Source: an uncultured Clostridia bacterium
GTDB lineage: Bacteria > Bacillota > Clostridia > Christensenellales > CAG-314
Length of the DNA: 64,000 bases
NCBI GenBank assembly: GCA_934230325.1
Contig: CAKQEP010000002.1
Span: 3,797-67,796 of the forward strand
Reading direction: 5' to 3'
Both the position numbers and the translations under genes were made by a program. The notes under the pieces are model-generated. The model saw nothing but the letters and a program-made list of their open reading frames with translations, searched no databases and was not told the DNA's origin. Within the stretch, counting starts at the first letter, position 1; the number at the start of each line of letters is the position of its first letter. Shown piece by piece: positions 9,301 to 50,891 of the stretch.

Positions 9301-9305
9301 AACCA

Positions 9306-9396
9306 TAAAAAAAACCTGCTTGCAATGCAAACAGGCGTATCTTTATCCCAAAAACGAAATATAAACACAATCTTGTCGGCATCGCTGTACCGTTTT
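9306..9396 (-). promoter_or_regulatory. PyrR-binding attenuator (binding stem-loop plus terminator) in the pyrR leader
   Basis: Minus strand carries AAUCUU-UAAAA-CGGUA-CAGCGA-UGCCG-AC-AAGAUU (9366-9396 region), resembling the PyrR CAGAGA loop. Terminator CCUGUUUGCA/UGCAAGCAGG (9315-9335) plus U8 (9307-9314). Confidence 0.7.
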
Positions 9397-9418
9397 AAAG
9401 ATTTATTTTGTTAAACGC

Positions 9419-19520: not shown

Positions 19521-19596
19521 CGAGGCGTAGCGCAGATGGTAGCGCGCATGGTTCGGGACCATGAGGTCGTGGGTTCAAATCCCGTCGCCTCGACCA
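19521..19596 (+). tRNA. tRNA-Pro (anticodon CGG), CCA encoded
   Basis: Manual cloverleaf fold. Acceptor CGAGGCG/CGCCUCG (C1:G72, as typical for bacterial tRNA-Pro). D arm GCGC-AGAUGGUA-GCGC. Anticodon arm CAUGG-UUCGGGA-CCAUG. T arm GUGGG-UUCAAAU-CCCGU. 76 nt. Confidence 0.9.
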
Positions 19597-47316: not shown

Positions 47317-47817
47317 TTAAATCCGTTGTTTGAATCTTCGCAAAACGAGTACCGCGCATATGCCGACGATTACTCCGCTCACCGCGCCGAGCAAGGCAAG
47401 GTAAGGCAGATACAAAAAGGCTTCCGTCGTGTTTGTAATTACTACGTATATTACGTTTTGCGTCACATTGTGCGCGACAGCGCCCGCAACGCTGACTGCG
47501 GTAAGACTCAATCTGTCCTTTAAACAAACGTACAAAACGACCATAACGGTAAGGCTCGTCGCCCCCGCCGTAAGGCTGTATATGAGAGTGCTGAGATTTC
47601 CGACGATAAAACTACCCAAAGTACATTTGACGAGCATAACTACGTAGGCTTGCCACTCTCCCATAGTGACCAAAGCCAACAAAACGAATACGTTGGACAA
47701 GCCCGTTTTTGCGCCCGGTACCAAAAACGACGGAAACAGATTTTCTATGACGAAAGCAATCAAAGACAAGGCGGAATACATGGATAATGCGACTATTTTT
47801 TTGCTTTTTTGCTCCAT
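47317..47817 (-). CDS. Gx transporter family membrane protein (heptaprenyl diphosphate synthase component I-like)
   Basis: ATG 47817 overlaps the upstream stop (TGATG). 166 aa with five TM segments. Confidence 0.7.
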   Translation of the reverse strand: MEQKSKKIVALSMYSALSLIAFVIENLFPSFLVPGAKTGLSNVFVLLALVTMGEWQAYVVMLVKCTLGSFIVGNLSTLIYSLTAGATSLTVMVVLYVCLKDRLSLTAVSVAGAVAHNVTQNVIYVVITNTTEAFLYLPYLALLGAVSGVIVGICAVLVLRRFKQRI

Positions 47818-49526
47818 CACGACACCTCTTGATTGCCTTTGCCGACGCCGACCACTTTGAGTTTGTGAGGGATACAAAGCGTTGCGTCGCCCGCTTTGGA
47901 TACTTGCCAACGCTTTTTTGCGCAATCTTTTCCTATGCAGTTTGCGTCGATTATTTTTGCGTTTTGTCCAAAAAACTCTATTACGTTGTAATCTTTTTGC
48001 GTTTCGTCAACGTAAATCGTTATCTTGGTAACCCCGTCGGTTTTTGTTTGAGTTATCCTATCGGCAAACGCAGAATTTTTTATCGCGCCGACAGAAGTTT
48101 TGCAATCGTAACGGTAAACTAATTTGCCGTCGACGTAAACGTCGATATTTTCCGTTTGACCTTTTTTGGGTATCAACGTAGCGCAAAACAAAGCGGAAAT
48201 GCAAACCGCCAACAATACGTAAACGACTATATCGCCCTTTTTAAAAAGTTTTGTTTGAGAAAAATCTTGCGTGTTCTCCTCTTTTTTGCGAGCGTTTTTT
48301 TTGCTTAAAATCACTATCGCCGCTATCGCTCCGACGCACAAACCTATCCCGCACCACAGCCACACGTTATCGTTTTTTGCGTAAAAAGTTACATCGCCGT
48401 CATAGACGTCAAAGTTGGTCAAAACTACGCTATGATTGTTGATTTTTAATTTTTTATCCGAAACGACGTTGAGTTTTTTGCCGTCGTCTTCCGTCACCAA
48501 AAAGGTTTTGCAACCGAGCCGCTCAAACTCTTTGCCGCCGCAAAACAACGCCGCTTTGGTTTTTCCCATTACCATAAGCGCGGTAGTCACTGCGTCGCAC
48601 ACCGCCGCGCTGTCGGCTATTACAAAAGCGTTGCAAAGTCCGCTCATAGTCGGCGCGCCCGTGTTTGCGTCGATTATATGACAGTATCTTTTGCCGTCGT
48701 AATCAAAGTATCGTTGATAATCGCCGCTGACGGATACGCTTGAATTTTGAGCGTTTTTGACGGTTGCGAGTCCGTCGCCGTATTTTTCGCGGCGTGGTGA
48801 CTCTACGTCAACGTCGACGTTTTTGCCGTTAATTCCGTTTAAAAAGGTGATACTGCTCGAGCCGACGTTAACGTACCCGCCTTTAATGTCGTACTCCGCC
48901 GCCGTCCGTTTTAACAAATCACACGCATACCCTTTGCCTACCCCGCCAAAATCCATCTGCGCGGTATACGTTTTGCCTTCCGCCGTCACTTCCGTTGCGG
49001 GTTTTGTCAAAGTCAAAGTCGCTTGCTGCAAACTTATCTCGTCAAAACAAAGGAGCGGTTTTAAGGCTTGTACAAGTTTTGCGTCGGGCGGAGTTGCCGT
49101 TGCCAAATCGCTTTGCCGCCGCGCGCTAAACCCCCACAAATCCACGAGCGGATACACCGTCGGATTGTATGCTCCGTCGGTTGCTCGGTAAACTTTTTGC
49201 GCTATTTTAAAGCAATCCGCAGTATATTTGCTAACGACTACGCTTTCTCCCACTTTTGCATCGTTGAATCTCGACAAATCGCTGTCGGGTTTGCTCAACG
49301 ACAACGCTTTGTCTACGTCGGCAAGAACTTTACGCATTTTTTTCAGCGCGGCGTCGGCGTTGTTTTTTGCTTGCGCCGTATTTGCGCAGTACAATCTCAC
49401 GGATATTTCCGTACCGAAATACTCAAAAGTATCAAAACCGCGCGATACTTCGCCGTTTTTGCCGCAACCGCATACCATCGCGACGATAAAACACAATATA
49501 ACGATAATTATCAGCGGTTTTTTCAT
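47817..49526 (-). CDS. apbE: FAD:protein FMN transferase (ApbE) lipoprotein fused through two TM helices to a NusG_II-like domain
   Basis: Signal peptide with lipobox (VAMVCGC). ApbE motifs (DGAYNPTVYPLVDLWGF). TM pair near residues 390-450. C-terminal beta domain with C..GKDC...C.PHK. Confidence 0.8.
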   Translation of the reverse strand: MKKPLIIIVILCFIVAMVCGCGKNGEVSRGFDTFEYFGTEISVRLYCANTAQAKNNADAALKKMRKVLADVDKALSLSKPDSDLSRFNDAKVGESVVVSKYTADCFKIAQKVYRATDGAYNPTVYPLVDLWGFSARRQSDLATATPPDAKLVQALKPLLCFDEISLQQATLTLTKPATEVTAEGKTYTAQMDFGGVGKGYACDLLKRTAAEYDIKGGYVNVGSSSITFLNGINGKNVDVDVESPRREKYGDGLATVKNAQNSSVSVSGDYQRYFDYDGKRYCHIIDANTGAPTMSGLCNAFVIADSAAVCDAVTTALMVMGKTKAALFCGGKEFERLGCKTFLVTEDDGKKLNVVSDKKLKINNHSVVLTNFDVYDGDVTFYAKNDNVWLWCGIGLCVGAIAAIVILSKKNARKKEENTQDFSQTKLFKKGDIVVYVLLAVCISALFCATLIPKKGQTENIDVYVDGKLVYRYDCKTSVGAIKNSAFADRITQTKTDGVTKITIYVDETQKDYNVIEFFGQNAKIIDANCIGKDCAKKRWQVSKAGDATLCIPHKLKVVGVGKGNQEVS

Positions 49527-49532
49527 ACGTCG

Positions 49533-49561
49533 ATTATAACAAAATCCGTCGTTAAAGTCAA
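49533..49561 (-). promoter_or_regulatory. Consensus promoter TTGACT-17-TATAAT ending 6 nt before the apbE ATG
   Basis: Minus-strand TTGACT at 49561-49556 and TATAAT at 49538-49533, then CGACGT, then ATG 49526. No Shine-Dalgarno sequence. Confidence 0.65.
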
Positions 49562-49591
49562 CGGCATATTTTTGTATGCGGCGTTAATATT

Positions 49592-50488
49592 TTAATCTTT
49601 TGCGGCAAACAACGGCGTGGACAAGTATTTTTCGCCCCTGTCCGGCAAAATAACTACAAAAACGCCCTTTTCCGTTTCTGCGACTTTTTGCGCCGCAAGC
49701 ATAGCCGCGCCGCTACTCATACCTACAAAAATACCTTCCTTTTTTACTATGTCTCTTGCGGTTTTAAAGGCTTCTTCCGTGTCTATCATAATGTGGCGGT
49801 CAATCAAATCGGGATTGTAGAGTTGCGGAACGATAGCCTCTTGCAAGTTTTTTAATCCTTGTATATAATGCCCCTTGACAGGTTGCGCTTCTATGACCTT
49901 AATTTTGGGGTTGTGCTCCTTTAAACCGACTCCTACGCCCATTATCGTGCCGCTCGTACCTACCGCGCTTATCAGATGCGTGACTGCGCCGTCGGTCTGT
50001 TGCCAAATTTCTTCCGCCGTCGTTTTGTAATGTGCGAGTTTGTTGTATTTGTTGCTGAACTGCTGTGTGCAAAAATATTTGTCGGGTTGCTCGGCGCACA
50101 TTTCCCGCACCTTTTTAATCGCGCCGTCAGTCCCGAGCGACGCGTCGGTAAGTACGACTTCTGCGCCGTATGCCTCTATCATTTTTCTGCGTTCTACGCT
50201 CACCGCCGCGCTCATAATTATGCATACCTTAAAACCTTTTATCGCCCCTATCATTGCAAGCGAGATACCCGTGTTGCCGCTCGTCGCTTCTATGACGGTT
50301 TTGCCCGCCGTCAAAAAACCGCCGCTTGTCGCTTGCTCAATCATTTTGAGAGCGATTCTGTCTTTGATACTGCCGGTGGGATTAAAACCTTCCGCTTTTC
50401 CGTACACCTCTACGCCCTCTTTTTTTATCATGTTGTTAATTTTTATCAGAGGGGTGTTGCCTATGGTTTGCAAAATACTCGTATACAT
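49592..50488 (-). CDS. cysK: Cysteine synthase A (O-acetylserine sulfhydrylase)
   Basis: GNTPLI, PTGSIKDR, SGNTG motifs. AAGGAGA RBS. Confidence 0.9.
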   Translation of the reverse strand: MYTSILQTIGNTPLIKINNMIKKEGVEVYGKAEGFNPTGSIKDRIALKMIEQATSGGFLTAGKTVIEATSGNTGISLAMIGAIKGFKVCIIMSAAVSVERRKMIEAYGAEVVLTDASLGTDGAIKKVREMCAEQPDKYFCTQQFSNKYNKLAHYKTTAEEIWQQTDGAVTHLISAVGTSGTIMGVGVGLKEHNPKIKVIEAQPVKGHYIQGLKNLQEAIVPQLYNPDLIDRHIMIDTEEAFKTARDIVKKEGIFVGMSSGAAMLAAQKVAETEKGVFVVILPDRGEKYLSTPLFAAKD

Positions 50489-50525
50489 TATCCTTTCTCC
50501 TTGTACCGATTTTTAAAATTTATAT

Positions 50526-50567
50526 AAAAAAAAGAATTAGTTTATTACCTAAAAAAACTAATCCTTT
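50526..50567 (-). terminator. AU-rich intrinsic terminator inside the cysK leader
   Basis: Minus-strand AAAGGAUUAGUUU / AAACUAAUUCUUU (13 bp, including one G-U pair), followed by U5. Confidence 0.5.
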
Positions 50568-50603
50568 AAAGACCGACGCATATTTACTTGATTTTATGCG
50601 CGG

Positions 50604-50651
50604 TCAGATATTACAACAACAATTGACGATAGCAAACGTCGAATTTTTCAT
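50604..50651 (-). CDS. Leader peptide ORF MKNSTFAIVNCCCNI (15 codons, three consecutive Cys codons)
   Basis: Manual translation of the minus strand: ATG AAA AAT TCG ACG TTT GCT ATC GTC AAT TGT TGT TGT AAT ATC TGA. The ATG lies 7 nt after a -10 box. Confidence 0.5.
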   Translation of the reverse strand: MKNSTFAIVNCCCNI

Positions 50652-50658
50652 CGACGTA

Positions 50659-50687
50659 ATACTAACACACCCAAACTACCTTGTCAA
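50659..50687 (-). promoter_or_regulatory. Promoter TTGACA-17-TAGTAT for the cysK leader
   Basis: Minus-strand TTGACA at 50687-50682 and TAGTAT at 50664-50659. Confidence 0.55.
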
Positions 50688-50891
50688 GCCTTTGACGGCA
50701 AAAGATTTTTTGATATATCGCCGTATTTTGCGCATACTTTTTTTTGCGAAATTTTGGTATGATTTTTAAAAAAATCGTTGCGTTTTGCCGACCGCGCCGC
50801 CGCAACGACGTTGCCGTTTGGTTTTGCGTTCATTATAATATCACACTATATAACATATTACAAACAACAGAACGATGTATAATACTGCATT

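Follow-up and report, generated by a model that had tools for sequence, protein, structure and literature searches.

How might a gut bacterium of the Clostridia adjust the production of cysteine when the customary regulatory elements are missing upstream of its cysteine synthase gene? In Bacillota, cysteine genes are textbook cases of control by T-box, S-box and CymR. The question is raised by a locus in a stretch of 64,000 nucleotides (nt) from an uncultured Clostridia bacterium (contig CAKQEP010000002.1; this whole 64-kb stretch is called the window), in which a cysteine synthase gene of the CysK/CysM family (hereafter cysK) follows a leader with a very short open reading frame (ORF), three consecutive cysteine codons and two predicted RNA hairpins. 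An earlier interpretation of the letters alone, made without database searches (the sequence-only reading), had taken this leader for a candidate cysteine-sensing attenuator.

In the analysis described here, the leader is considered probable, with considerable room for doubt, to be a cysteinyl-tRNA-sensing leader-peptide attenuator of the cysteine synthase gene, possibly with a non-classical switch. A cysteine sensor that is read by the ribosome is the best explanation because the mini-ORF is conserved, the structure behind it is locked in position, there is no space behind the terminator for cysK to have a promoter of its own, and the gene makes cysteine.

Organization of the cysK leader

All the elements of the leader are on the minus strand of the window. 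Transcription is expected from a promoter composed of the −35 hexamer TTGACA (50687-50682), a spacer of 17 nt and the −10 hexamer TAGTAT (50664-50659), which a TG at 50667-50666 turns into an extended −10 element (TGT TAGTAT, 50667-50659). This promoter scored 10/12, with TG, in a promoter scan. The leader ORF (50651-50604) begins with an ATG 7 nt past the −10 hexamer and is not preceded by a Shine-Dalgarno (SD) sequence. As 7 nt past the −10 hexamer is the canonical distance for a transcription start site and an SD is lacking, the ORF would be leaderless. It has 15 codons, ATG AAA AAT TCG ACG TTT GCT ATC GTC AAT TGT TGT TGT AAT ATC TGA, and would encode the peptide MKNSTFAIVNCCCNI, in which the Cys-Cys-Cys run occupies codons 11-13. 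The TGT TGT TGT of this run (50621-50613) is the proposed sensing site.

Two hairpins are predicted after the cysteine codons. Hairpin 1 (50605-50571) is GC-cored and has 11 bp and one bulged U, with a folding energy of −15.0 kcal/mol. Its arms are GACCGCGCAUA and UAUGCG(U)CGGUC, its first bases are the GA of the leader stop codon, and its onset is 7 nt past the last TGT. A short gap (3-5 nt over the two species compared below) separates it from hairpin 2, an AU-rich stem of 13 bp (−10.7 kcal/mol) with the arms AAAGGAUUAGUUU and AAACUAAUUCUUU at 50567-50531. Hairpin 2 leads into a run of 8 U, of which 5 are past the stem and the last is at 50526. The segment 50567-50526 is the presumed intrinsic terminator, that is, the attenuator. 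Together, both hairpins fold with −25.7 kcal/mol (z = −5.2), and 0 of 200 shuffled sequences fold as well. From the beginning of the leader to the end of the U-run there are about 125 nt.

The gene follows immediately. A GGAG (50500-50497), 8 nt ahead of the ATG at 50488, serves as the predicted SD of cysK, which extends from 50488 to 49592 and codes for a cysteine synthase of 298 amino acids. The assignment of this regulated gene is based on the NCBIfam model TIGR01136 (cysKM), which the product passes with 367 bits against a cut-off of 344. The promoter, the 15-codon ORF, the hairpins, the SD and the ATG were all correct to the base in the sequence-only reading, strand included. The U-run ends 38 nt ahead of the cysK ATG in the window (and 22 nt ahead of it in L088, a relative described below), and no usable promoter was found between the terminator and the ATG: the sole promoter-like match behind the window's terminator would start transcription inside cysK, and there is none in L088. 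Since this gap is short and without a usable promoter, cysK must be transcribed through hairpin 2.

The known cysteine controls share the target pathway with this leader, and T-box and S-box likewise rely on a terminator within the 5′ leader. Nevertheless, a leader of about 125 nt is too short for either. A comparison of the leader region with Rfam at a permissive E ≤ 10 gave nothing relevant, neither a T-box nor a SAM riboswitch, and the same was true for the L088 leader at E ≤ 1. For CymR, the operator consensus of Bacillus subtilis and Staphylococcus aureus is TAAWNCN2ANTWNAN3ATMGGAATTW; it had 0 matches at ≤3 mismatches in the whole window, a result that holds for the B. subtilis/S. aureus-type consensus and leaves room for a divergent clostridial motif. 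In this respect, the sequence-only reading, which had seen no T-box, S-box or CymR motif, was borne out.

Conservation of the leader

The CysK protein belongs to a population that is 98-100% identical in human-gut metagenomes, and comparison within the species already suggests that the leader is constrained. The 212 nt from the −35 hexamer to the cysK ATG are identical in three strains of the same species (the window, L081 and L221), with 0 substitutions. In the same strains there are 4 substitutions in the adjacent upstream 191 nt of intergenic DNA and 19 in cysK, and the flanks differ by 1-2%. About 4.5 substitutions would be expected if the leader changed at the local rate.

The next relative of CysK is a protein (P0003) that is 75% identical to it and its mutual best hit. 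It is encoded in L088 and, nearly identical, in L109, which is of the same species as L088. In this second species the ApbE fusion protein is 42% identical to its window counterpart, and the downstream genes ApbE-NusG_II and Hpre_diP_synt_I are common to both. The leader is found there too. Its promoter has the same −35 hexamer at the same 17-nt spacing (TTGACA-17-TAGTAT with TG), and a 10-mer at the extended −10 element, GTGTTAGTAT, is identical. Its ORF, ATG GAC AAA ATC ACA TCA ATT ATT AAT TGT TGT TGT AAA TAA, would be translated into MDKITSIINCCCK (13 codons). The first hairpin behind this ORF, with the arms ACGCGUUU and AAACGCGU (−11.6 kcal/mol), is unlike hairpin 1 of the window in sequence; it is followed by the heptamer CUUUAAA and by a second hairpin, AAAUUAGUUU/AAACUAAUUU, with a run of nine U (U9), 22 nt ahead of the cysK ATG. 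The stem of this second hairpin is a perfect, AU-rich one of 10 bp (−6.6 kcal/mol). As a whole, the structured region of L088 folds with z = −4.1 relative to shuffled sequences.

The two leaders are identical in a set of islands: the promoter hexamers, the 14-mer AATTGTTGTTGTAA that contains the cysteine codons, CTTTAAA, and the terminator arms ATTAGTTTTT and AATAAACTAATT. Within the ORF, the block AAT TGT TGT TGT AA is kept in L088 and L109. Between the window and L088, the ORF changes are synonymous (ACG/ACA, ATC/ATT) or conservative, and the difference in length is one codon and in frame (3 nt). In effect, N-C-C-C is the only strongly conserved part of the mini-ORF. Hairpin 1 has been wholly rewritten between the two species, yet its onset is exactly 7 nt past the third TGT in both, and the leader stop codon is within or immediately ahead of its 5′ arm in both. 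Neither terminator stem is an obvious one for a program: hairpin 2 was not called by a simple terminator scan of the window because its stem has fewer than three G-C pairs, and a consensus scan made no call in L088 either.

The start of the ORF is a point where the two species differ. In L088 the 5′ untranslated region has 29 nt and carries GAAGGA at SD distance before the ATG. The leaderless initiation that the sequence-only reading had postulated is plausible in the window, given the ATG 7 nt past the −10 hexamer and the missing SD, but it is not conserved. Judged from these sequences, leaderless initiation would be a peculiarity of the window species and not of the element. By contrast, the expectation that relatives keep the ORF and its cysteine codons held wherever a homologous leader exists: in L088 and L109 the AAT TGT TGT TGT, the hairpin offset, the terminator and the promoter hexamers have all been retained. 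Taken together, the comparison of sequences favours a real and conserved cis-regulatory leader.

Several checks say that the features of the leader exceed chance. The leader ORF is the sole ORF of ≤40 codons with three consecutive cysteine codons on both strands of the window. The motif TGYTGYTGY is not enriched there (8 observed, 4.3 expected), and TGT is the minor cysteine codon in the long ORFs of the window (93 TGT and 223 TGC). About 88 unrelated cysK genes were examined over 350 nt of upstream sequence, and no short ORF with Cys-Cys-Cys was found there. A scan of genome contigs with a CysK alignment picked up universal motifs and gave, among the matches listed, only distant cysK genes (L001-L080), which were used solely as background. 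In L042 and L059, cysM-like genes are preceded by cysteine-rich short ORFs, but these are within upstream coding sequence and were put down to chance.

Proposed mechanism of cysteine sensing

If the leader is a ribosome-read sensor, transcription would start at the TTGACA-17-TGnTAGTAT promoter, and the 15-codon ORF would be translated, leaderless in the window species and in an SD-dependent manner in its relative. When Cys-tRNA(Cys) is ample, the ribosome would reach the stop codon and its leading edge would take in the 5′ arm of hairpin 1 completely; termination ahead of cysK, at the AU-rich hairpin and its U-run, would follow. When Cys-tRNA(Cys) is scarce, the ribosome would wait with one of the three UGU codons in the A site. 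In this case, the front of the ribosome would be just short of hairpin 1 at all three UGU codons, hairpin 1 would be folded, and more polymerases would reach cysK.

The geometry of the leader can be compared with this scheme. A ribosome holds about 11-13 nt of mRNA ahead of the P site. On this assumption, a ribosome with the first, second or third cysteine codon in the A site leaves hairpin 1 folded, and for the third codon the hairpin is flush with the ribosome. On the same assumption, a ribosome on the stop codon contains the entire 5′ arm of hairpin 1. Thus, in the model, the placement of the stop codon would let a terminating ribosome melt the first helix and a stalled ribosome spare it. 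Two further properties of attenuators are found: the short ORF appears to have a credible start (the GAAGGA SD in L088; the ATG 7 nt past the −10 hexamer in the window), and its codon run is for the amino acid that the regulated gene makes (three TGT, cysteine synthase). An antiterminator that has a strand in common with the terminator and depends on the position of the ribosome was not found.

The last of these results is one of several that weigh against a leader-peptide attenuator. In attenuators of the trpL/hisL type, the antiterminator is the helix directly in front of the stalled ribosome, and one of its strands also belongs to the terminator. Such a structure was looked for in both species with folds constrained by the ribosome footprint (ribosome absent, on the first, second or third cysteine codon, or on the stop codon), with transcripts truncated before the 3′ arm of the terminator, with RNAduplex runs of all upstream segments against each arm, and with pair probabilities. 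None of these gave an antiterminator overlapping the terminator in either species, and the central terminator pair had a probability of at least 0.99 in every ribosome state. The best competitor for the 5′ arm of the terminator is a small U-rich hairpin of about 2 kcal/mol or less. Several alternatives were checked by hand and rejected, as none is conserved: an extended hairpin 1 (AUCU:GGAU), a kissing interaction between loop and arm, pairing of the cysteine block with the terminator, and pairing of the 5′ purine tract with the U-rich arm. Consequently, with no antiterminator in either species, the defining switch of trpL/hisL-type attenuation is missing. The sequence-only reading had been unable to derive an antiterminator by eye and had left the matter to ribosome-masked folding; in such folds the terminator forms in all states of both species, and the antiterminator proves to be absent, not merely hard to see. 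Overall, that attenuator interpretation is supported in part: the leader and its cysteine codons are conserved, but leaderless initiation is not, and a classical antiterminator was not found.

The remaining points on this side concern the parts and the sample. Both terminator stems are predicted to be weak, with −10.7 kcal/mol in the window and −6.6 kcal/mol in L088. The window ORF has no SD, and the model has to assume that this uncultured Clostridia-like organism carries out leaderless translation. A stem that is identical to the nucleotide in two diverged species exceeds what a plain terminator needs, which hints at a further function. There are only two independent leader sequences, too few for covariation statistics. 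Lastly, the other six CysK relatives that were sampled, with 70-74% identity (L082, L089, L091, L093, L217 and L219), all lack the leader. The search of related cysK upstream regions that the sequence-only reading had suggested was productive in part: L088 and L109 carry the Cys-Cys-Cys ORF, but these six relatives have no leader.

How a folded hairpin 1 would lower termination can be approached with candidates only, and confidence in any specific switching mechanism is low. One candidate is that the stalled ribosome and hairpin 1 interfere, by steric hindrance or by the length of the tether, with closure of the weak AU-rich terminator stem. Another is that hairpin 1 is a pause hairpin that sets the timing. 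A third is an additional partner, which would also account for a terminator stem that is conserved as a sequence and not as a structure alone. The first of these can be extended to an antiterminator-free attenuator, in which hairpin 1 is a tether-length device and sensing is by steric or kinetic proximity instead of alternative pairing; in this form the proposal is regarded as doubtful. With the ribosome waiting at a UGU codon, the folded hairpin 1 would keep the 5′ arm of the terminator about 3-10 nt from the mRNA entrance, and closure of the stem would demand a collision of ribosome and polymerase, with read-through as the result. A ribosome at the stop codon would unfold hairpin 1 and free about 25 nt of single strand, and the terminator would close. 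Such a tether could account for the 7-nt offset that has been kept to the nucleotide.

Frameshifting at hungry UGU codons was also checked by hand and rejected, since either shifted frame runs into a stop codon before hairpin 1 or inside it. A second mini-ORF, AUG CGU CGG UCU UUA AAG GAU UAG (50581-50558), runs from the 3′ arm of hairpin 1 to the 5′ arm of the terminator. It holds a U UUA AAG heptamer, has no SD and is probably fortuitous. That it carries a ribosome into the terminator was rejected as a mechanism of the family, L088 having no AUG there. In addition, CGGUCUUUAAA (50575-50565), which covers the end of hairpin 1's 3′ arm, the spacer and the terminator base, shows complementarity at 10 of 11 positions to UUUAAAAAUCG (50517-50507), just upstream of the cysK SD. 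The long-range helix formed by this pairing would enclose the whole terminator in the read-through mRNA. In L088 there is a weaker counterpart, CGUA...UACG, flanking its terminator.

Alternative explanations

The cysteine codons might be used in the same way, by stalling, with an output at translation instead of transcription. Here, the Cys tract or the U-run would pair with the ribosome-binding site (RBS) of cysK, a ribosome stalled on the cysteine codons would release this site, and hairpin 2 would be only a partial terminator. The polycysteine short ORFs (sORFs) of mycobacteria act by RBS sequestration (bioRxiv 10.1101/834739), and the full-length fold of the window does pair UUGUUGUUGUA with UACAAGGAGAA, the cysK SD included. 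Nevertheless, the pairing of the Cys tract with the SD consists of 9/11 weak A-U and G-U pairs with two G-G mismatches. Such an RBS-sequestering duplex is weak, occurs only in the minimum-energy fold of the window and is absent from the fold of L088, where the SD has a different context. Moreover, a conserved hairpin with a run of eight to nine U (U8-U9) directly before a gene is the signature of transcription termination, and we regard the translational explanation as clearly unlikely.

Both explanations so far need the ORF to be read. The ORF might instead be incidental, and the leader an attenuator or operator that responds to something else: an RNA-binding protein at hairpin 1, a DNA-binding regulator at the inverted repeat AATTAGTTT...AAACTAATT, or an unknown ligand. 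In favour of this, no antiterminator is tied to the position of the ribosome and the window ORF has no SD. The stem of the terminator, identical in two species with a rewritten hairpin 1, suggests sequence-specific recognition, and AATTAGTTT...AAACTAATT is perfectly conserved. It is harder to see, on these terms, why, in both species, the 14-nt block codes for N-C-C-C in the frame of an ATG and a stop, with an SD in L088, why the difference in ORF length is in frame, and why hairpin 1 keeps its position relative to the cysteine codons to the nucleotide. Moreover, cysteine is the product of the regulated gene, and neither a B. subtilis-type CymR box nor a match to an Rfam family was found. An incidental ORF is thus held to be unlikely. 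Still less can be said for an independent small gene, coding for a cysteine-rich micropeptide or a small RNA of about 125 nt, with cysK expressed from constitutive leakage. The promoter, ORF and terminator do form a complete transcription unit, and weak terminators could leak. However, the peptide is poorly conserved outside (I/V)NCCC and varies in length, the unit is always joined to cysK, and the two appear to have moved together (L214-L216, described below, have neither), and no other gene is close enough to use it. This explanation seems very improbable, and the cysteinyl-tRNA-sensing attenuator is preferred to all three.

Relation to known leader peptides

Leader-peptide attenuators have been described in Firmicutes, where they are regarded as rare; for instance, the leu and his leaders of Lactococcus and the hisS and hisZ leaders of Bacillus (PMC2965389). 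The cysK leader resembles these and the classical attenuators of Proteobacteria (trpL, hisL, pheL and thrL) in several ways. It has a promoter-proximal short ORF with a codon run for the final product of the pathway, a stop codon placed such that a terminating ribosome would cover the 5′ arm of the first hairpin, and a U-run hairpin before a biosynthetic gene. It differs from them in that hairpin 1 and the terminator of the window share no strand, so there is no 2:3/3:4 alternative. In addition, the leader would sense cysteine and its ORF is apparently leaderless, and it has neither sequence homology to them nor an Rfam match.

Cysteine codons have been reported in leaders of other phyla. In mycobacteria, polycysteine leaderless sORFs (Ms5788A, the "Cys ribulon") are experimentally established cysteine-responsive attenuators that unmask a downstream RBS (bioRxiv 10.1101/834739), and cysteine-rich leader peptides without terminators had been predicted earlier in Actinobacteria (PMC1262725). 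As in the mycobacterial sORFs, the window has a very short and probably leaderless ORF at the 5′ end, with two to three or more consecutive cysteine codons, upstream of a gene of cysteine metabolism, and the proposed read-out is a ribosome pausing for Cys-tRNA. Unlike theirs, which have no intrinsic terminator, the cysK leader has a conserved hairpin and U8-U9 before the gene; RBS-masking pairing and the leaderless feature are not conserved here, the phylum is another one, and there is no homology. In Rhodobacterales, the uORFC-8-2 motif upstream of cysS, with a Cys-Cys upstream ORF and a terminator, has been predicted (PMC8632094). It is likewise a predicted ribosome-mediated attenuator with tandem cysteine codons, two stems and a terminal U-run. 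Nevertheless, its cysteine codons are inside the first stem and its gene is that of the cysteinyl-tRNA synthetase, whereas in the window the codons precede the first stem by 7 nt and a cysteine synthase is encoded; the lineages are unrelated.

A full-text literature search found no cysteine leader peptide described in Bacillota or upstream of cysK, which is not proof of absence. To our knowledge, mycobacteria are the only bacteria in which leaders with cysteine codons have been demonstrated, with translation as their target, and for Rhodobacterales there is the prediction at cysS. Thus, as far as the sequences tell, the cysK leader is most likely a leader-peptide attenuator in a phylum and at a gene where none has been described. 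If so, it would extend ribosome-based cysteine sensing to gut Clostridia-like bacteria, and one leader type would work both with and without an SD. As neither species offers an antiterminator, the leader would also be a compact (about 125 nt) test case in which to ask if intrinsic termination can be suppressed by a stalled ribosome without alternative pairing. Its importance is limited by its occurrence in only two uncultured lineages, where it is known from sequence alone.

Distribution and genomic setting

The leader seems to be confined to few genomes. The upstream regions of the close CysK relatives P0004, P0006, P0015, P0016, P0029 and P0042 have no Cys leader, and several of these genes are simply operonic. 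A second search for homologues, seeded with P0003, gave no intermediate relatives. A metagenome scan with the pattern TGTTGTTGT-N-TTAGTTT-N-AAACTAA yielded, among the matches listed, only L109 as a real one, the rest being due to chance. A seemingly closer CysK homologue (P0002, 447 amino acids, on a JGI contig of 1996 nt) was discarded: it is an internally duplicated, chimeric gene call and its high bit score is an artefact.

In the window (47817-50891), cysK and its leader are between a divergent MatE transporter gene and a gene for an ApbE-NusG_II fusion, which is followed by Hpre_diP_synt_I. In L088 there is an extra LUD-domain gene between cysK and ApbE. In L214-L216, which were found through the ApbE-NusG_II fusion, the synteny is kept, with MatE and ApbE adjacent and neither cysK nor leader between them. 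Since distant relatives keep this adjacency without cysK, cysK and its leader give the impression of a unit that was inserted, and only two of the sampled lineages have it. The fusion protein itself (47817-49526, minus strand, 569 amino acids) consists of an ApbE FAD:protein FMN transferase domain fused with a NusG_II domain, and has only about 16 full-length relatives (at least 31% identity) in the protein collection.

The intergenic region between the divergent MatE and cysK genes contains other signals. About 80 nt upstream of the leader promoter, an inverted repeat with 8 perfect bp, TCGTTGCG-18 nt-CGCAACGA, leads into T7 (50808-50768, minus strand); it is terminator-like and absent in L088. 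Just upstream of this repeat, TTGTAA-17-TATTAT (50863-50835) resembles a promoter. An Rfam "Histone3" stem-loop at 50734-50781 is a sub-threshold match. The sole Rfam matches at the gathering threshold in the window are a tRNA gene (19521-19593, plus strand) and a PyrR binding-site RNA (9305-9405, minus strand), the latter with 54.8 bits, just over the gathering score of 54.

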